IMG/VR virus record: IMGVR_UViG_3300038393_003162 | Location: 84,407 to 148,406 of that record | DNA from: a virus | Lineage: Duplodnaviria; Heunggongvirae; Uroviricota; Caudoviricetes | Strand: one strand, 5' to 3' | Length of the DNA stretch: 64,000 bases | Shown here: one piece after another, positions 13,515 to 33,816 of the stretch | How positions within the stretch are numbered: the first letter of the stretch is position 1 | How the letters are laid out: each line of letters opens with the position of its first letter | Position numbers and translations under genes: made by a program | The notes under the pieces: model-generated | What the model saw: the letters and a program-made list of their open reading frames with translations, nothing else | Database searches by the model: none | Told to the model about the DNA's origin: nothing

Positions 13515-14636
13515 TCAAAGAGCCGCTTTCTGGAGAATGCGATGTTGATTGACCCGAGCCTTCTCAATCTTGGACCACGCCTTCCGGAGCATCTTGCCCG
13601 CCCATGTGCGCGAGCAATTATGCTTCTCAGCCCACCGGGTTTGGAACCCATGGCTGCCTTCCTGCGCCATCTCGATCAACTCTCGTTCTTTCGCGTCCAA
13701 TCCGGAGCGGTCGAGAAGCTCATTGAAGGAGGTCACATCGACCTTGACAGGAGCGGGACAGGAGTTGATGCCGCCGATGAACTTGCCGTCACCCTCGTCG
13801 ATCTGCATCTCGGTATCGCGGATGGTCGACTTGCTTTCAGGACCAAACGCCGCTCTAAGCTGCTTGATTTCCTTGTCGGTAGGACGCCGAAACCCGCCAT
13901 TCTTGAGCGTGATCTTGACCCGAGACACGATCGATTCGAACCTCCTGTCTTCGATGTTCTCAATCGAGGCGGCATAATATGCCGACACCAACTTGTAGTT
14001 CTGGGAGAGCAACTTGTTCTGAGGATTGGTCTGAGCCAGTTCCCGCACCATGTGACGGAAGATGCTGTTGCTGACGTAGGTGCTGAATAAGACGTTGTCG
14101 CGGCGATACCCCCAGACAGCCGCGACAACTCCCATCAAGCCCACCTGGATCAAAACCTCAGCATCCACTAGGACTTGATCGTGCGACCGTCTCGCCAGCG
14201 TTTGTGCGAGATCGCAGACCATCCGGACGTAGCCCTCGATGATCCGATTCTGAACGGATGCGACCGCTTTAACCTTGGCGAGGTCCGACTCCGACAGCCC
14301 CAGCGTGTTGACATTCCTTCGCAACTCTTGAATCGAACCTCTGGCGAACCACTTGTCCGGCTTGGCGTTGCCGAGGATCTTGACCTGCTCGTATTCCTCG
14401 GTCGTCATCACGCCTCGGTAAGAAATGCGTCGAGGATGATTTTCCGGCAAGAACAAACGTTCCCGGAATTCTTCGGGAGCGTAGCGGAAGGACTTGGCGA
14501 TTCGGTTGAGAAGCTTGACCGAATCGCTGTATTTCTTGAGGACCACGTTTCCTTTTCGAAGAACATCGAAAAGGACTTCCTCCTCTTCTTTGCAAAGGTC
14601 GGAATGGATGATCGGGGAAACCGCTGTGTGAAACAT
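13515..14636 (-). CDS. Sigma70-family RNA polymerase sigma factor (phage-encoded)
   Basis: Region 2-like LIQVGLMGVVAAVWGY...FSTYVSNSIFRHM and C-terminal HTH; SD GGAGG. Confidence 0.75.
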   Translation of the reverse strand: MFHTAVSPIIHSDLCKEEEEVLFDVLRKGNVVLKKYSDSVKLLNRIAKSFRYAPEEFRERLFLPENHPRRISYRGVMTTEEYEQVKILGNAKPDKWFARGSIQELRRNVNTLGLSESDLAKVKAVASVQNRIIEGYVRMVCDLAQTLARRSHDQVLVDAEVLIQVGLMGVVAAVWGYRRDNVLFSTYVSNSIFRHMVRELAQTNPQNKLLSQNYKLVSAYYAASIENIEDRRFESIVSRVKITLKNGGFRRPTDKEIKQLRAAFGPESKSTIRDTEMQIDEGDGKFIGGINSCPAPVKVDVTSFNELLDRSGLDAKERELIEMAQEGSHGFQTRWAEKHNCSRTWAGKMLRKAWSKIEKARVNQHRILQKAAL

Positions 14637-14741
14637 GAACCAACACCCTCCGATGGCAGGGAATTTGAATGATTCAAATGAAGCGACTTCGTCGTCGCCG
14701 TTGCTGCACAGGGCGTATCCGGTTTTAACCGAATGAACCGA

Positions 14742-15035
14742 CTAGTTATCGTCGTCGGTCAATGTCTTCCCGCACTGGACGCACTCGTAGCCGAGATCTC
14801 CGTAATCCGGGTGATCGTCGTTGAGCAAGCCCTGCTCGTCTGCCAGCCCGTTGACCTGTTCTTCAGCGAAATCGACGCTGATCTTTTCGCGTTTGGCGAG
14901 GGCATCGACGTCGATGCGACCAAAGCATGTCTGGCAGAAATCCTCGGGACTCCGGAAGGCTCCGGGGTCAGCCTGATATCGAGGTTGGTTGTTCTTATAA
15001 ATCTTCTCGGCGTTGATTACGGTGAGACGCGGCAT
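14742..15035 (-). CDS. Hypothetical Cys-containing protein
   Basis: FCQTC...YECVQC; ends in TAG in frame with the sigma gene. Confidence 0.65.
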   Translation of the reverse strand: MPRLTVINAEKIYKNNQPRYQADPGAFRSPEDFCQTCFGRIDVDALAKREKISVDFAEEQVNGLADEQGLLNDDHPDYGDLGYECVQCGKTLTDDDN

Positions 15036-19714: not shown

Positions 19715-20242
19715 TTATCCTGCTGCCGGAAGGCGCTGCTCCATTGCCTCGAAGAACTGGTCTTCGGTGACATTGTGTAATTCGAGCGTCTGAAGCCACT
19801 TGGCGTGACGCGCCCGACGTTCGTACGGGGTGACGGAAAAATCGTTGAAGATGGAGTCGAATGCCCACGCCAACCGATTATACAGCAGATCGGACATTCC
19901 GTTGTCCAGTTGGTCGTAAGTGATTCTCGCCAAGATGCCTTTGATGAAGCTCAAAGAATCCTCCAAAGATGGGTAAGGAATTTCACTAAGGTTCCACTTC
20001 CTCTGGTCGCACCAGGGAAACTCACCGGCTTCCGCGCGACAGATCAATTCAGCTTTGGCGTTGTTGCTCTTGATCCTCCTGGCAAAGATATCAGATGAAG
20101 TCAAACGCCACCGATCCCCGCTGGATGAGGTGACCCTGATCTGAATCGGATTAGCGTAGTCTACCAGAAGATAGACCATGTCGCCACCGCCCAGGCACCA
20201 GAGGTCACCGGCACGAGGATTACATACCGCACATCGACTCAT
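19715..20242 (-). CDS. Hypothetical protein
   Basis: 175-aa ORF in operon context; start uncertain. Confidence 0.55.
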   Translation of the reverse strand: MSRCAVCNPRAGDLWCLGGGDMVYLLVDYANPIQIRVTSSSGDRWRLTSSDIFARRIKSNNAKAELICRAEAGEFPWCDQRKWNLSEIPYPSLEDSLSFIKGILARITYDQLDNGMSDLLYNRLAWAFDSIFNDFSVTPYERRARHAKWLQTLELHNVTEDQFFEAMEQRLPAAG

Positions 20243-20254
20243 CGCCCGCCCTTC

Positions 20255-20812
20255 CTATAGGCTCTCAAAATACGCCATTTCCTTCATTCGTCGCCGCTTG
20301 ACATTCGGGGAATCGCTGACCAGTCCTTGCCCCGAAAGATACGTCCAGATCGATCGGTAGAGGCTCTGGGGATCAGCCCATGCTTGGTCGACTGCCCGAA
20401 GCCCTTGAAGACTGAGATGTTCGCCGGTGGATCGACAGTCGAAGAATGCGCAGGCGAATGGCGAAGTCTCGTGAATCCCGCACTTTCCGTCATCGCCAAG
20501 ATGGATGCACGAATGGTCCGGCTTCTCGGCAAGGACCAACGTGGGAATCCGCCGTTGCCCCTCCGCTTTCCCGGTCTGCTGGTTCAAGACCGCCACAGTG
20601 GCACCGGGAGACGCCAGCAGGTTCTTGCTCGCCCATTCCAAGGGGTCGGCACCTGCTGGGATCATCCTCGCGAGGTCGGACGGGATGAGGTAGCCCGGCA
20701 TATACCGGCAATTCATCAAGCAGTCTTTACAGCCGCACTTGGTCCTCGCGTGACCGAATTCGATCCTTTTGTGGTCGGGAACCGGAGAGTCGTTTAAGAC
20801 CGGAAGGCTCAT
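20255..20812 (-). CDS. YkgJ-family cysteine-cluster (Zn/Fe-chelating) protein
   Basis: CGCKDCLMNC...CIHLGDDGKCGIHETSPFACAFFDC; ends in TAG. Confidence 0.75.
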   Translation of the reverse strand: MSLPVLNDSPVPDHKRIEFGHARTKCGCKDCLMNCRYMPGYLIPSDLARMIPAGADPLEWASKNLLASPGATVAVLNQQTGKAEGQRRIPTLVLAEKPDHSCIHLGDDGKCGIHETSPFACAFFDCRSTGEHLSLQGLRAVDQAWADPQSLYRSIWTYLSGQGLVSDSPNVKRRRMKEMAYFESL

Positions 20813-21309
20813 GATTGGTTGATCTCGTTGGGGGCTTCGACGAATACGGTATCGGGCTGGACCTTTTCCGCCCACATCACGATGGAATGCGCCGGTTCGT
20901 TGAGGTCGAATGGTTCCCTCAAATCATCGTGGAGTATCCAGCCTCCGTTGTGAGTCTTGTAGGCAACCCACTTGCCGTCATAGGTCTGGAGATCGCTGCC
21001 TGAGAGTCGCAGGTGGTGGCGGAAGGGACCGATGGTTCGCCTGATTTCATCCTGCGATTCCATACGGAAGAAGTATCCCATTGTAGCATCCCGGATATTC
21101 AGATGCCAATGGGTATCGGAATATCGCTCGCCCTTGCTCCGGGTTTCGAGCAATCCGGCTTCCTCCATCTCCTGGAGGGTCGATAGGCGGATGTTACGAC
21201 ATTGGTTCACGCCATCGGCGACCATGTAACCGATGTTGGAGGTGGAGGGCGACCAAATTCGCCCTCCTCGTCGCAAATGGTCGATGATCAATCGATGCGA
21301 CTTTTTCAA
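20809..21309 (-). CDS. Hypothetical protein
   Basis: Coupled to both neighbours; TTG start chosen, uncertain. Confidence 0.5.
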   Translation of the reverse strand: MKKSHRLIIDHLRRGGRIWSPSTSNIGYMVADGVNQCRNIRLSTLQEMEEAGLLETRSKGERYSDTHWHLNIRDATMGYFFRMESQDEIRRTIGPFRHHLRLSGSDLQTYDGKWVAYKTHNGGWILHDDLREPFDLNEPAHSIVMWAEKVQPDTVFVEAPNEINQS

Positions 21310-27989: not shown

Positions 27990-28439
27990 TTAGCCCACCA
28001 CAACCTTAGACGAGCAACAATGCGATGCGGCTTCGACGGTCTCAGCCCTCTTACCCTGGCAGCAAGGCTTCGCCTCGTCGAGGATCGCCTTGATCATCGA
28101 GAACTCGACCAGCATTCGCTCCTTGTTGCTCCCGTCGAAATCAGGGAGAGGACCAACGCCACGACCCTGGACGATGACTCGCTGCCCGACCTTGATCCCG
28201 CTGGACTCGGGGAGGCTCGGTCCGACTTCCAGGACGTAGCCCTGAGGCGGTCCTTCGATCTCGGTGTCGTTGCCGAGGAGGATCGACCCACCCTGGATCT
28301 CCTGTGCCGTCAAGAACTCAACCATAATCAAAGAGCCGGTGGGATGGATGCCCGTCACCTTGGGGGCTGCCTTGACCACCGGAGCGGGAACCATGCTCAA
28401 ATCCAACTTACTCGAACCATTAAAGATAATTTCCGACAT
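27990..28439 (-). CDS. groES: GroES/Cpn10-like co-chaperonin
   Basis: IHPTGSLIMVE, GGSILL mobile loop, GYVLEVGP, IKVGQRVIV, SMIKAIL; Cys-rich tail. Confidence 0.8.
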   Translation of the reverse strand: MSEIIFNGSSKLDLSMVPAPVVKAAPKVTGIHPTGSLIMVEFLTAQEIQGGSILLGNDTEIEGPPQGYVLEVGPSLPESSGIKVGQRVIVQGRGVGPLPDFDGSNKERMLVEFSMIKAILDEAKPCCQGKRAETVEAASHCCSSKVVVG

Positions 28440-28578
28440 TCTCCAAACTCCTACTAGAGATTATTTTATTTAAATTGGTGTTAGTGCGAAGGTGTTATAT
28501 CATAATTTTAAAATAGTGTCAATAAAATAATCCTAATGTGAAACCTAAAATATTTTAGGTTTCACATTAAGATAAAAA

Positions 28579-28923
28579 TTAAGCGACGTGTGAGAGCCTC
28601 AGCAGTTGGTATTTTCGAAAATGACGACGTTGCTCGCCGTAGACTGGCTCTGTAGCCAGGGCGGTGGCGATGTGACCGATATCGGGTTCGCGGAAGAGTT
28701 TGGTGCGGATGCCGAGCGATTCGAGGCGTTCCTGCTCGCGGAGCAGTTGGGCTTCGTTCTTGACGCCGCAGGCAATCAGGAAAGGATGGGAGAGGTCGGG
28801 CGGGACGAAATGACGTGCAGCCTCGATGGCGGCATGCCCAGCCTGGACAACGATTTGTCCATAACTCTGGTCTTTACGGACCAAGACGTAAACGTACGGA
28901 TCATGATTCTCAATCTACAACAT
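28579..28923 (-). CDS. Pth2-family peptidyl-tRNA hydrolase with in-frame TAG at codon 3
   Basis: CAGGAG-ttgaaa-ATG TTG TAG ATT GAG AAT CAT GAT CCG TAC GTT TAC GTC TTG GTC CGT AAA GAC; then YVYVLVRKD, QAGHAA, FREPD, TALATEP. Confidence 0.8.
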
Positions 28924-28981
28924 TTTCAACTCCTGAAAAGAAAAACATGAGAGGGATGAATCAATCCCTCTCATAGACTGA

Positions 28982-30058
28982 TCAATTTCCCAACTTTCGC
29001 AACGCAGCGAGACCGTAAAACTTTGACCCCTCACCGAGTAACCGATCTCCCCATCGCATGACGAACCGGTCGTTTTGCCTTGTTACCGGAATATAGGGCG
29101 ACGAAACATACCCATTATAACCGGGGTGTTCTCCGCGAAATCCCATAAGGACCCCATTCACCTTGAAACTTGGTCGGTTGTAGTATCGCTCCCAATCTTC
29201 AAAGTTATAGAGTTTCTCGAATTCACGCCGCTGGACATGGATTCCCATATTCTGCAACTGTGGGACCAATTTATCGCGGTCGAAATCGTCATCGGGATGA
29301 GTTTCGGGAACAAGAGCCCAGAAGAACCCCTTCTCTGATTTATTTATAAGGACCTTCTCGGCAATGGCTTCACGAAGCATTATACAGGCTTCGAGTGGGG
29401 ATGCATTGCGAGATCGGTCGACATACGTGTCAACATTGCTTGCGATATTGAGTGCTGCCCGACTCAGTACGGATTCAGCCAGGTCTTTGGCAAGATCGGC
29501 AGCATAATCCGGTCCTCCAGCAATTACGTTTTCGTACGTTTCTCCATATTTGGTGAAACTTGTCACGATCGATTCTGATTCTTTGGCCCAAATGCTTTTG
29601 CCATCTTCATTGGTCCTATGCCGCCAGTAGTAGATTAACGACAGAGGACTCGTGGATGGATAGACCGGAAGCCATTTCTCAGCAAAAATCATAGCCATGG
29701 CTCGACGTACAACTGCGATTGATATACGTCGCATTCCGGGGTCCATTGCTGTTTGCGTCTCAACCTCGTTGAAAATTCTCTGGTTCTCCAAGACCATCGC
29801 CATGGTCCGACCATCTTCCCTGTCCAATCCATGAAGCATGCCTGTATCTTGCCAACGATCATAGCAACGAATTCGGGCTATCTCATGGAGTCGCTCATCG
29901 AATGTGGACGTAGCGTCCCATACTGATGTGTCGGGACCGGGCAGAAGTGGCAAAACAGAGTCGGTCGTCGAAATTTTTGTTGGGCTAACGCCACCTATTC
30001 CCACTGATCCTATCCATGCTCTTGGATTTAAGAAATTATTACTGTCCATGAAATTCAA
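28982..30058 (-). CDS. Diverged T4 gp23/gp24-like capsid protein paralog
   Basis: LENQ..., ISIAVVRRAM...PVYPSTSPLSLIYYWR and YVSSPYIPV...FVMRWG echo gp23 signature blocks. Confidence 0.6.
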   Translation of the reverse strand: MNFMDSNNFLNPRAWIGSVGIGGVSPTKISTTDSVLPLLPGPDTSVWDATSTFDERLHEIARIRCYDRWQDTGMLHGLDREDGRTMAMVLENQRIFNEVETQTAMDPGMRRISIAVVRRAMAMIFAEKWLPVYPSTSPLSLIYYWRHRTNEDGKSIWAKESESIVTSFTKYGETYENVIAGGPDYAADLAKDLAESVLSRAALNIASNVDTYVDRSRNASPLEACIMLREAIAEKVLINKSEKGFFWALVPETHPDDDFDRDKLVPQLQNMGIHVQRREFEKLYNFEDWERYYNRPSFKVNGVLMGFRGEHPGYNGYVSSPYIPVTRQNDRFVMRWGDRLLGEGSKFYGLAALRKLGN

Positions 30059-30350: not shown

Positions 30351-30534
30351 GATATCCCCATTCCTTTTCTACCTTGGCTGTTACATGCCTTACAGAATCA
30401 ACTTCAGTTGTACTGCCGCATTGGAGACAACGTTCTACGACTCCATATTGGGCGTAGAACGTCTCCTTGCAGCAAGCACAATGATATTCCGTGAGATCAA
30501 GCACTTCTAGCTTCTTGCTTTTGTTCTTGCTCAC
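30343..30534 (-). CDS. Small zinc-ribbon protein
   Basis: HCACC...CLQCGS; GTG start with AAGGA SD. Confidence 0.55.
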   Translation of the reverse strand: MSKNKSKKLEVLDLTEYHCACCKETFYAQYGVVERCLQCGSTTEVDSVRHVTAKVEKEWGYHG

Positions 30535-33289
30535 CAATAATTTCCTTTGGTCGAGAACCGTTCCTGCCTGCCATGACGAGGGAGCATCGTGTACAGAGGC
30601 GTTCGGGGTTCTTCTCCACCTCGTACCGATATCGCCAGCACCGCTCGCACTTGGCATACTTAGTTTTCTGGACCTCCACCGAGAACCCATCGGAGACGAC
30701 CGGGTCGGGAATCCAGAAAACATCGGCAACCTTACACAGGTCCCGAATGATCTCCAGATTTTCGACCGCCGTCAAAATATTTTCCTGCTTCGTCCCCAAA
30801 ATGACCCAGACTTCTTCATTGGTCCGGATCACCTTCTCCGATCGTAGCTTTTCGATCTCGGCGAAAATCCGCTCCCTCAACTTAAAGATAGTATCCCATG
30901 GCAATTCCCGGCGCTCGTCGGTGGCAATTGGCTGAGGGAAGGTCTCCAGGAAGATACTCTTGTGGTCCACTCCCAATCCTTTGGACCTGTAAGACCACAA
31001 CTCCTCAGCAGTATGCGGAAGGATTGGTGAGATGAGCCGAGCCAGGGTCTCGTAGATCGTCCTCAATACCCAGCGAACCGAATTTCCCGAGGGCGAATCC
31101 AAGTCGTCCGCGTACAGACGGTCCTTGACCACATCGAAGTAGACACTGCTCAGGTCTACCACGCAAAAATTGTAAACCAGATGATAAACGTGATAGAAAC
31201 GATAGGAATCGTACGCTTTCTTGACCTCACCAATCAAGTCGTTGAGCCGAGTCAACATGTGGAAATCGATCTGGCTGGTGATCTCCGGACGGGAATCGGT
31301 ATTCTTCCACGCCCTATCCATGTTCCCGAGGATGAAGCGGAAGGTATTGCGGATCTTCCGATAGACATCCTGAGCGGTCGTCAGCAACTTGTCGTCGACC
31401 CGCAAGTCATCGGTGTAATCCTGGGATGCGATAAACAGCCGAATGACATCGGCACCGAATTTGCCCAAGGTCTCGATGACCGGAGGAGCTCCCTTGGACT
31501 TGCTGAACTTCTTGCCCGACTCGTCCACGACCCAGCCATGCGTGATGACCGTATCGAATGGTGCCCTGTTGTTCAGAGCCGTTCCCAAGAGCAGGGACGA
31601 CTGGAACCAGCCTCGATGCTGGTCGCTCCCCTCGATGTAAATGACCTTCTCAGCCCCCGAAGGGACCACAGAGGCGAAGCTTGAGCCGGACTCGAACCAG
31701 ACATCCAAGATGTCGGCATCGGCGCTGATGTCATCCTTTTCGCAATTCGGACACCAGCAGTGATTCTTGGTCTCGATGTCACGCCACCAGTCGTCGCCTT
31801 CCTCGATGGCAACCCGGATCACCTCTTTGGTCAAGAAGGATTGATTGCAGTTGTGGCAGTGGAACGCAGGGATCTTGATGCCCCAATGCCGCTGGCGGCT
31901 GATGCACCAGTTGGGTCGAGACTCGACCATACCCTCGATGCGGTTCTGGAGGTTCTCCGGAATCCACGTAGTCTCGGAGATCGCCTTGAGGGCTTTTGTC
32001 CTCAAGGCGTTCTTGTCCAGATCTACGAACCATTGGGGCGTAGCACGGGTGATTGTGGGATAGTGACATCGCCAGCAGTGAGGATAGGAATGAGTGATTC
32101 GTTCCTGATGCCAGAGACATCGACCCAGCATGGACGACAATGCCTTCAGGGTCTCCTTCTTCTTGACATGTTGTCCGTGGATCTCGGGACAACAGCGGAT
32201 GTTGTACTTACCGGCTTCATCGACCTTGTCCAGGATCGTCAGTCCGAGTTCGATCGCGAGCTTGTAGTCGTCGAGTCCGTGTGCCGGGGCGATGTGGACC
32301 ACGCCAGTACCGACTCCCTGCGTCACGAAATCGGCACCGACCACTTTTCGGGAATCAACCAGGAACCGGAACGGCATCGGAGCTAAGTAGGACTTCCCGA
32401 CCAACTCAGACCCAAGGCATTCACCGAGAATCTCGTGGTCGGCAACATCCATCAGTTCCAGCAGGTTGGCAACGGCAGATTCCTCAACTACAAATACGTC
32501 CCGGTGCGTTGGTCGCTGGCACTTGAGCATCTTGACGCAGACGTATTTGAGATCGGGATTAACTGCAAGCGCCACATTCCCCGGCAACGTCCATGGTGTC
32601 GTGGTCCATGCAACGAAAGAGAAAGGAGAAGAGACGCCCGAAAGATACCCGATAGCAGGGAATTCAACATAGAACGCATCGCTCTCAACGTCCTTATATT
32701 CGAGTTCTGCCTCTGCCAACGCCGTCTCATCATGAGGACACCAAGCGATGGGGCGTAGCTCCCGTTTGATCTGGTCCTTATCGACCAAGCGAGAGAGTAT
32801 CTCAAGCACCTTCCGCTTGTAACTCTCGTCCATCGTCAGATAGGGATGGGACCAATCCGCCAAGAGACCAAGCCGCTGAAATTGCTTAGCTTGAGATTTC
32901 TGACACTGCCCAGCCGTCACCCGGCAAGCTTTTCTGACAGTCAGTAGATTTTCTTGAGTGCCAAAATATTCCATGACACGGTGTTCGATCGGCAATCCGT
33001 GGCAGTCCCAGCCGGGCACAAAAGGGGCATCGCATCCCGAGAGCGTGAGATAACGGACAAGGATATCCTTCAACACCTTGTTGAACATGTGACCGAAGTG
33101 GATGTCGCCGTTGGCGTAGGGAGGACCGTCGTGGACGACTACGAGCGGCTTGTCCTTGCGGATTTCCCGGAGAGTCTCATAAAGCCCGTGCCATTTCGCC
33201 TGAATTTCAGGTTCGATGGCATCAAGATCAGGCTTCATGGGGTAGTCGGTCTTGGGAAGAAGCAACGTCTCCTTGTAGTTGACAGTCAT
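30497..33289 (-). CDS. ileS: Isoleucine--tRNA ligase (bacterial type 1)
   Basis: HDGPPYANGDIHFGH, GWDCHGLPIE, WTTTPWTLPGN, WCISRQR, EGSDQHRGWFQSS, KFSKS, C-terminal KCERCW...LCTRC. Confidence 0.97.
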   Translation of the reverse strand: MTVNYKETLLLPKTDYPMKPDLDAIEPEIQAKWHGLYETLREIRKDKPLVVVHDGPPYANGDIHFGHMFNKVLKDILVRYLTLSGCDAPFVPGWDCHGLPIEHRVMEYFGTQENLLTVRKACRVTAGQCQKSQAKQFQRLGLLADWSHPYLTMDESYKRKVLEILSRLVDKDQIKRELRPIAWCPHDETALAEAELEYKDVESDAFYVEFPAIGYLSGVSSPFSFVAWTTTPWTLPGNVALAVNPDLKYVCVKMLKCQRPTHRDVFVVEESAVANLLELMDVADHEILGECLGSELVGKSYLAPMPFRFLVDSRKVVGADFVTQGVGTGVVHIAPAHGLDDYKLAIELGLTILDKVDEAGKYNIRCCPEIHGQHVKKKETLKALSSMLGRCLWHQERITHSYPHCWRCHYPTITRATPQWFVDLDKNALRTKALKAISETTWIPENLQNRIEGMVESRPNWCISRQRHWGIKIPAFHCHNCNQSFLTKEVIRVAIEEGDDWWRDIETKNHCWCPNCEKDDISADADILDVWFESGSSFASVVPSGAEKVIYIEGSDQHRGWFQSSLLLGTALNNRAPFDTVITHGWVVDESGKKFSKSKGAPPVIETLGKFGADVIRLFIASQDYTDDLRVDDKLLTTAQDVYRKIRNTFRFILGNMDRAWKNTDSRPEITSQIDFHMLTRLNDLIGEVKKAYDSYRFYHVYHLVYNFCVVDLSSVYFDVVKDRLYADDLDSPSGNSVRWVLRTIYETLARLISPILPHTAEELWSYRSKGLGVDHKSIFLETFPQPIATDERRELPWDTIFKLRERIFAEIEKLRSEKVIRTNEEVWVILGTKQENILTAVENLEIIRDLCKVADVFWIPDPVVSDGFSVEVQKTKYAKCERCWRYRYEVEKNPERLCTRCSLVMAGRNGSRPKEIIGEQEQKQEARSA

Positions 33290-33690
33290 GTTTTCCTTAC
33301 TTCAAAAAAATTGTGGATAAGAGGGAGGAGTCGTTCCTCCGCAATATCGGTCTGGTACTGCTCGGCAATGGCGTCTTTAACGGCAACGAGCAGTTGCGTA
33401 AAAAGAACCTGTCGTCTTGACTCCACTCTCTGTTTCAAATGGTCAAGAGTAGATCGCAGACAGGGATGTTCGTTAGACAATGCTTCTGTTGAAAGCGGAA
33501 ATAATGATTTGTAGATATCGTTAAGTTCTGATTCACCATGGGAAATATCCCGCTCAAGATCTCGCAGAGATCGCACGCTAGCTTGGTAGCGATCAACCTT
33601 CCTGAGTAACGGCGTAATGTGCTTAACAACAATGGTGGACTTAAATCCCCTGATTAAATTCAGGGTTTCTTGGTCGATAGGTTGTATCAC
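33286..33690 (-). CDS. Hypothetical protein
   Basis: 134 aa, coupled to ileS. Confidence 0.6.
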   Translation of the reverse strand: MIQPIDQETLNLIRGFKSTIVVKHITPLLRKVDRYQASVRSLRDLERDISHGESELNDIYKSLFPLSTEALSNEHPCLRSTLDHLKQRVESRRQVLFTQLLVAVKDAIAEQYQTDIAEERLLPLIHNFFEVRKT

Positions 33691-33743
33691 GATTCATCCT
33701 TACTGCGTAGAACATCGAGACTGGAAGACCTATGATGAATGAG

Positions 33744-33816
33744 TACGGACAGTGGGATTCGAACCCACAACAGCAGGTACTAGAAGCCTGCGCTCTTCCA
33801 TTTGAGCTATGTCCGC
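33744..33816 (-). tRNA. tRNA with anticodon CUA (amber suppressor-type); CCA not encoded
   Basis: GCGGACA-TA-GCTC-AAATGGAA-GAGC-G-CAGGC-TTCTAGT-ACCTG-CTGTT-GTGGG-TTCGAAT-CCCAC-TGTCCGT-A; standard numbering from both arms puts CTA at 34-36 with U33 and purine 37. Confidence 0.88.

Follow-up and report, generated by a model that had tools for sequence, protein, structure and literature searches.

The leader of the Pth2-like gene

How can a virus express a gene whose reading frame is interrupted by an amber codon directly behind its start? This question is raised by a Pth2-like gene on the minus strand of a 64,000-nt stretch of DNA from a large soil phage (positions 84,407 to 148,406 of the IMG/VR record IMGVR_UViG_3300038393_003162, Caudoviricetes; hereafter the window, to whose positions the coordinates of the locus refer). 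The gene opens with a Shine-Dalgarno (SD) motif and the codons ATG TTG TAG ATT. An original prediction, made from the letters alone, had proposed that the full-length protein is obtained only if the UAG is read through, either by a phage tRNA with the anticodon CUA or when release factor 1 (RF1) is limiting. The comparative sequence analyses presented here make it highly probable that leader and tRNA form a two-part translational gate, in which the Pth2-like protein is made only when the phage tRNA(CUA) overrides the UAG.

A single sense codon separates the SD-led start from the amber codon, and the +4 base following the latter is A (Table 1). Beyond the TAG, the zero frame is open for 111 codons up to the TAA at 28581-28579; a frameshift past the TAG was considered and rejected, since the zero frame stays open. 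Under translation table 11, the start of the open reading frame (ORF) is placed at the TTG at 28884, which is codon 14. This TTG lies inside strand beta-1, because beta-1 comprises residues 10-16 in the AlphaFold2 model, and it is also located downstream of Tyr12. No GGAG-like motif was found upstream of TTG 28884, and neither ATG, GTG nor TTG occurs between the TAG and codon 14 at this locus. The leader TAG is not a private assembly error, because Logan contigs from two other metagenome studies (X4, covering 28540-29050, and X6, covering 28876-29050) carry the same leader letters with 0 differences. A nucleotide search against GenBank phages gave no match.

With the TAG taken as a sense codon, the product of 114 amino acids matched the Pfam family PTH2 (PF01981) with 28.4 bits (cut-off 23; E 2e-6; residues 12-96; profile positions 4-102 of 115), and the profile scan of its own genome yielded 26.3 bits for this gene. 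The AlphaFold2 model, which was based on an alignment of 44 relatives, reached a mean predicted local distance difference test (pLDDT) score of 93.1. Foldseek retrieved the archaeal and human Pth2 structures 2zv3, 3erj, 1xty and 1q7s with template modelling (TM) scores of 0.71-0.74 (E 1e-6), and the AlphaFold database contributed PTRHD1 and archaeal Pth2 proteins (TM up to 0.76). Conserved throughout the family are the VQxxHA helix, the Arg-x-Asp of beta-1 and a Glu-Pro-Asp...Thr-Ala motif; Tyr12 is invariant or nearly so. Judged by the sequence, the PF01981 match and the model, the original description of the locus, i.e. a strong SD with a 6-nt spacer, a leader running in frame into a Pth2 fold, and an annotated TTG start that lacks an SD and cuts the first beta strand, was borne out; a start at this TTG would lose Tyr12 too.

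Homologs were collected by tblastn against GenBank phages (38 records, nearly all from jumbo phages) and by a profile-guided scan of IMG/VR (75 loci), and were dereplicated at 90% identity to 67 sequences; labels consisting of L and three digits denote loci. An SD followed by ATG, one to six codons and a stop, in frame with the Pth2-like ORF, was present in 54-55 of the 67. The stop was TAG in 48 homologs, TGA in five to six and TAA in one, and 12 had no leader. One candidate TGA leader, L085, belongs to an upstream ORF that looks non-coding, and the case was left ambiguous. The phage RsoM2USA has the same four codons as the window gene (ATG TTG TAG ATT), ME3 has ATG ACT TAG ATT, Arash ATG CTG TAG AAC, GAP32 and CBB ATG GCA CAA TAG, Yen9-04 ATG TCT CAC TAG, and the huge phage LR756511 ATG ACT CAC TAG, each with an SD upstream. 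A fused ORF of 286-288 codons with two domains occurs in XacN1, Xoo-sp13 and CM1; its C-terminal half is the Pth2-like domain, and the leader (ATG AAG TAG or ATG AAG AAG TAG) heads this fused ORF, 540 nt 5' of the Pth2 domain. The Pth2-like gene of RaK2 has an ordinary start and no leader.

Several features of the leader recur. An SD-like motif is found 5-9 nt 5' of the leader ATG in most homologs, the stop is codon 3 in 31 of the 51 dereplicated ATG leaders, and the last sense residue before it is mostly Thr (23) or Leu (9). The base following the TAG in 44 leaders was A in 23, G in 20, C in one and T in none; this amounts to a purine in 43/44 (binomial p about 2e-11 against base composition). 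In E. coli, a purine at this position is known to favour nonsense suppression. In one sub-clade (L013, L014, L018, L021, L023-L025, L027, L030, L031, L044, L051, L066 and L067) a second in-frame TAG is present at the conserved loop leading from helix 1 to strand 2, and two suppression events would therefore be needed.

Because the same leader recurs in 48 of the 67 dereplicated homologs, a chance leader is excluded, and its conservation argues that the early stop is programmed and selected. The original prediction had asked for an alignment of homologous 5' ends, had named a sequencing error or a private nonsense mutation as an alternative, and had also considered an efficient start downstream of the stop. 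The alignment recovered the early TAG behind an SD-ATG, the relatives share the leader, and most of them possess no ATG, GTG or TTG between the stop and beta-1. In the databases the gene is often truncated or missing: many of the 38 GenBank records show a shortened coding sequence (CDS) at the match or none at all, the family has no assigned function in PHROGs, and one of its two families there, PHROG 34073, is a 77-residue stub which arises from a mis-called start.

Match between stop codon and suppressor anticodon

The phage tRNA(CUA) which the original prediction had placed near 33744 is real, as ARAGORN (anticodon CTA) and Rfam agree on it (Table 1). It is encoded on the same strand as the leader, 4.8 kb upstream, and is the sole tRNA in the window. 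The contig from which the window was taken (195,476 bp) contains 34 tRNAs, of which 33 are clustered at 35-69 kb, and the tRNA-CUA stands apart from these, near the Pth2-like gene.

ARAGORN was applied at every homolog locus. A tRNA-CUA occurred within 10 kb in 35 clusters with a TAG leader, and a mismatched suppressor in none. A tRNA-UCA is located 14-252 nt upstream of every TGA leader (L048, L065, L071, L074, L081 and the ambiguous L085), and the TAA leader of L041 has a tRNA-UUA. The anticodon consequently fits the stop in 41-42 of the 41-42 leaders with a suppressor within 10 kb, for which the chance would be about 4e-8 if the rows were independent; the rows are related. Because they are not independent, a protein tree was built. 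The TGA rows are scattered over this tree and require six changes, at least four of which are forced by well-supported branches; L073 (TAG/CUA) and L074 (TGA/UCA) are sisters. The suppressor tRNA lies on the strand of the gene in 39/40 cases and upstream of it in 35, and 18 of the latter are within 620 nt.

In the tRNA regions of whole records, a tRNA-CUA was located elsewhere in TAG-leader genomes that have no flanking suppressor (CM1, Xoo-sp13, LR756511 and the L012 contig), and the genomes of XacN1 (PMC5852040) and RsoM2USA (PMC8504454) are reported to carry one as well. Leaderless controls had no suppressor, namely RaK2 (8 of 9 tRNAs examined), L079 (26 tRNAs) and L086 (about 18-21 tRNAs). 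These patterns indicate that the type of stop is matched to the anticodon of the phage suppressor tRNA. The retention of early in-frame stops and their co-variation with the anticodon also support the proposal that the full-length protein requires read-through of the UAG by the phage tRNA.

In some TAG-leader genomes an ochre tRNA-UUA was observed beside the tRNA-CUA: in CM1 (OP883945) the two are at 172710 and 176611, and in the L012 contig they are adjacent (167265-167425).

The window tRNA-CUA has a G1-U72 pair, a C31-A39 mismatch in the anticodon stem and G37. Position 37 is A in most suppressors of the relatives, and the loop TTCTAGT is common to the window tRNA and that of L030. As a suppressor, it may be weak or carry a special modification. 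An initiator-like role of this tRNA, i.e. a start at the UAG, was rejected: the three G-C pairs in the anticodon stem are missing, the pair 1-72 is G-U and not C-A, and the SD stands at the proper distance from the conserved ATG.

A proposed translational gate and its alternatives

According to the proposed mechanism, ribosomes would start at the SD-led ATG, add Leu and meet the UAG at codon 3. Here the tRNA(CUA) would compete with the release factor and with the drop-off of di- or tripeptidyl-tRNA. If RF1 wins or the dipeptidyl-tRNA drops off, nothing useful would be made, as the complete fold has no start downstream of the stop; if the tRNA decodes the UAG, translation would continue in the same frame to the full 114-residue Pth2-fold protein. 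The protein level should then track the amount of working, i.e. processed and charged, suppressor tRNA relative to the termination activity. Because the stop lies in the unconserved N-terminal tail, which is predicted to be disordered, the identity of the inserted residue would be irrelevant, and failed attempts would waste almost nothing. As the tRNA gene mostly precedes the Pth2-like gene immediately, the most plausible role of the gate is to report on the state of the suppressor, i.e. whether it has been processed and charged and prevails over termination. The original prediction had suggested a coupling to termination status or to infection timing; the position of the tRNA directly upstream on the same strand in most relatives would fit a check for a working suppressor better than a timing switch.

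Several observations weigh against this gate. No tRNA-CUA was found within 10 kb at 13 TAG-leader loci, and the contig of L017, a complete-looking genome, showed none among the 32 of its 41 tRNAs that were examined. In L026 and L034 the Pth2-like gene has an ordinary start, with a suppressor tRNA a short distance upstream. L052 has no leader and a suppressor 9.6 kb off on the opposite strand, and the genome of L063 (a provirus-classed record) has no leader, an ordinary start and two tRNA-UCA at 66-75 kb. At the window locus itself, the efficiency of the tRNA is in doubt, given its distance of 4.8 kb, the C31-A39 mismatch and a G37 seldom seen in tRNAs that read codons starting with U. Assignment of its isotype by the nearest non-suppressor neighbour was inconsistent and low-scoring. 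Finally, the Gly-Lys loop following beta-1 of canonical Pth2 is missing: the profile alignments to 24bt and 2zv3 show a 2-residue gap, and the family reads DLxxx-QQxVQ. This loop carries the catalytic Lys in the Pth2 of Sulfolobus.

A canonical Pth2 is encoded elsewhere in the genome, outside the window (contig positions 73137-73721; 97 bits to PF01981), and possesses a Lys-Gly-Lys loop, an ordinary ATG and no gate; CBB has a separately annotated PTH2 as well. As to the catalytic Asp, which canonical Pth2 carries in the strand-loop preceding the last strands, the near-invariant Glu79-Pro-Asp81 of the gated family aligns within 1-2 columns of it, in an uncertain register. Because the canonical loop is missing from the gated gene and an ungated canonical Pth2 is present in the same genome, the gated gene is best regarded as a specialised paralog and not as the general peptidyl-tRNA recycler of the phage. 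Its product is predicted from sequence and model to be a specialised tRNA 3'-end hydrolase, distinct from ordinary Pth2. Of the tRNA-rescue enzyme in the original prediction, the Pth2 fold stands; given this divergent paralog and the ungated Pth2, the rescue role is an assumption.

Among the alternatives, a release-factor sensor survives best. Here, the availability of RF1 would be the main variable and the tRNA a constant helper, and the enzyme would rise when termination is impaired. This would agree with the location of the stop at codons 2-7, as very short peptidyl-tRNAs are known from the minigene literature as poor termination substrates, and with the fact that T never follows the TAG. 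Furthermore, the tRNA is 14-620 nt upstream in many relatives and probably co-transcribed, so that it may not vary independently of the mRNA. However, the lineages differ in their stop and together employ all three, so that nothing specific to RF1 would be sensed, and a feedback loop is not obvious for a product other than a release factor; no gene with a release-factor domain was detected in the 195-kb contig. Such a sensor, which would be compatible with the gate and does not exclude it, appears improbable to us.

Termination at the TAG and a restart at ATT 28914 or TTG 28884 would make expression independent of the suppressor. Phages often have short upstream ORFs with coupled restarts, and ATT follows the TAG at the window locus and in 7 of the 51 leaders. 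The codon after the stop is, however, not a conserved start (AAC, GTA, GTT, ACC and others occur), a start codon ahead of beta-1 is lacking in CM1 and at many other loci, and the spacing of the SD suits the ATG and not the ATT. Moreover, a restart predicts neither the constant frame of the ATG with the Pth2 ORF nor the complete match of stop and anticodon through independent switches. We consider it very unlikely.

The chance of a genome-wide recoding, in which TAG is read as an amino acid everywhere (code 15), is slimmer still, even though a tRNA(CUA) is present and suppressor tRNAs are well known from recoded phages. In a crude gene set of the contig, TAG terminates about 35 of the 265 ORFs, and the in-frame extensions past TAG are no longer than those past TAA. 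Reading TAG as sense brings no selective gain in ORF coverage in comparison to TGA or TAA, and the same applies to the TGA-type loci. The Pth2-like gene is the only case in 195 kb in which SD, ATG, one to six codons and TAG are followed by at least 80 open codons, and the stop keeps its position from lineage to lineage. Of the hallmarks of code 15, the suppressor tRNA is thus present, and in-frame TAG codons in many genes and the abandonment of TAG as a terminator are not; the genome is not recoded. That the gene is broken or wrongly sequenced is practically negligible, although relatives are annotated in this way, with truncated or missing CDSs (GAP32_397 and Arash gp84c; no call in Yen9-04 and BF; the stub in PHROG 34073), as the same letters occur in contigs of other studies and 54-55 of 67 diverged homologs keep the leader together with invariant residues and a fold modelled at pLDDT 93.

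Partner gene, surroundings and related systems

In most lineages the Pth2-like gene adjoins a gene for a protein of 170-190 residues (PHROG 14850, without assigned function). It is located downstream in ME3, GAP32, CBB, Yen9-04, Arash, RsoM2USA and others, upstream in L029, L058 and L069, and fused in the XacN1 group. The protein contains an invariant His...His-Asp...His...Asp pattern, and its model reached a pLDDT of 95.8. Pfam HD matches remained below the threshold and a PDB profile search was weak; the fold search was the informative one. It gave chains of 3wfo-3wfs named tRNA processing enzyme (TM 0.56-0.62; E 4e-3), which we take to be class II tRNA nucleotidyltransferases (a lead only), followed by assorted HD phosphohydrolases. 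In the 195-kb contig no tblastn match better than E 0.5 was obtained for this HD-fold partner; the contig is about 66% complete according to CheckV, and the phage may still carry one.

The partner is interrupted by amber codons as well. It has an amber leader in L017, L029, L058, L069 and the XacN1 group, whereas elsewhere the TAG is internal, close to codon 47 (GAP32 group) or to codon 51-54 (L028, L053 and L070); the annotation of GAP32 splits it into stubs. In addition, a gene of 120 residues without known family, directly upstream of the Pth2-like gene, opens with ATG-x-TAG in L036 (9622-9990), L037 and L038, and homologs of it exist in L079 and L080. This gene may be a third kind of amber-gated gene.

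It is likely that the pair of Pth2-fold and HD-fold proteins acts on tRNA 3' ends, as far as the models allow this prediction. In most relatives the gated protein probably works together with the adjacent HD-fold phosphohydrolase, and its output is probably tied to suppressor activity, either for the handling of read-through by-products or for feedback on the suppressor tRNA. A more far-reaching possibility, which we regard as rather doubtful, is that the tRNA and the Pth2-like protein, joined in most relatives by the HD protein, constitute a closed, self-regulating module that sets its own level of read-through. The enzymes would then act on the 3' end of the suppressor tRNA or on peptidyl-tRNAs resulting from read-through, and the purpose could be to blunt host systems which act at stop codons in the A site, e.g. 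toxins of the RelE type. If this were true, it would represent a natural orthogonal switch of tRNA and gene with feedback.

Table 1. Positions of the features discussed. The first six rows refer to the 64,000-nt window; the partner rows give the label of the homolog locus and the position.
Feature	Position	Strand	Remarks
Shine-Dalgarno motif CAGGAG	28930..28935	-	6-nt spacer to ATG; sequence read directly
Leader ATG-TTG-TAG	28915..28923	-	start, one sense codon, in-frame amber as codon 3; ATG 28923-28921, TTG 28920-28918, TAG 28917-28915, followed by ATT 28914-28912
Pth2-like gene	28579..28923	-	114 codons including the amber; stop TAA 28581-28579
tRNA, anticodon CUA (amber suppressor)	33743..33816	-	ARAGORN; Rfam tRNA 60.3 bits, threshold 29
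Terminator-like hairpin, 12 pairs and T-tract	28946..28975	-	between upstream capsid-like gene and SD; consensus match only
20-pair hairpin, T-rich tail	28530..28573	-	directly 3' of the TAA of the Pth2-like gene; consensus match only
HD-fold partner, L047	10324-10884
HD-fold partner, L059	10324-10887
HD-fold partner, L017	10320-10913
HD-fold partner, L029	8492-9070
HD-fold partner, L015	9452-9973		fused

Directly past the 20-pair hairpin, TTGACA and TATAAC with a distance of 17 nt were noticed by eye on the minus strand (28494-28522; the last base of the -10 element is C, for which reason the promoter scanner passed over it), which is likely the promoter of the GroES-like gene at 27990-28439. 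Between the tRNA-CUA and the Pth2-like gene, the same strand encodes an isoleucyl-tRNA synthetase (30497-33289) and an ORF of 134 residues without known family (33286-33690). Two candidates for fused ORFs elsewhere in the window (19715-20875 and 13515-15035) were discarded, as neighbouring genes that share a frame explain them most simply; at 20245-20243, for instance, a TAG abuts the ATG of the next gene.

The cassette in the window thus comprises the early stop in the Pth2-like frame and a cognate tRNA on the same strand, with no adjacent HD partner. Full-text literature searches, which did not extend to subscription journals, revealed no published description of a cassette of suppressor tRNA and early-stop Pth2-like gene. 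It would be a natural single-gene switch operated by nonsense suppression, akin to those which synthetic biologists build by hand. The analysis also exposes a systematic annotation error, with the gene truncated or absent in GenBank records and PHROGs and the partner gene split, and points to an uncharacterised pair of Pth2-fold and HD-fold enzymes. The hosts of several cultured relatives grow easily, so that direct testing is feasible.

Recoded phages (crAss-like, Lak and jumbo phages with code 15 or code 4) carry suppressor tRNAs (Borges et al., bioRxiv 10.1101/2021.08.26.457843; PMC13037316). As in these phages, a phage tRNA (CUA, UCA or UUA) would decode a stop inside phage genes. In recoded phages, however, the codon occurs in dozens to hundreds of mostly late genes and is no longer used as a stop, whereas here TAG remains a stop and is found in one small gene (in relatives in one or two adjacent genes), at a fixed site just past the start and with the tRNA nearby.

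The gene prfB, which encodes release factor 2, likewise contains an early in-frame stop (UGA) that ties its output to the efficiency of termination. Unlike prfB, which depends on a +1 frameshift and senses its own product, the gate would keep the zero frame and employ a dedicated tRNA at the stop, and what it controls is no release factor. The bar minigenes of phage lambda consist of an SD, AUG, one codon and a stop. The leader resembles them as an SD-led ORF of two to three codons, from which the release of very short peptidyl-tRNAs, the substrates of Pth, would be expected. Whereas the bar minigenes stand alone, the leader is continued by a conserved ORF in the same frame and has the gene for a matched suppressor tRNA in its vicinity. 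With Pth2 (PF01981; 2zv3, 3erj, 1xty, 1q7s) and PTRHD1 the protein shares the alpha/beta fold (TM 0.71-0.76) and the VQxxHA helix motif; it differs in an identity to them of only 15-25% and in a deleted Gly-Lys loop, and its activity is predicted from the fold.

The closest relation exists to the orphan suppressor tRNAs of standard-code jumbo phages, which are often present without a known purpose. Those of XacN1 and RsoM2USA are the same tRNAs as considered here, and both phages carry the amber-led gene. The respective publications (PMC5852040 and PMC8504454) dealt with 3' extensions of ORFs ending in TAG or with TAG counts only and named no target, and the XacN1 paper explicitly reported that no suppressor target was found. 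The target proposed here is an amber codon close to the 5' end instead of such 3' extensions, and the cassette would provide the first concrete target for these tRNAs.
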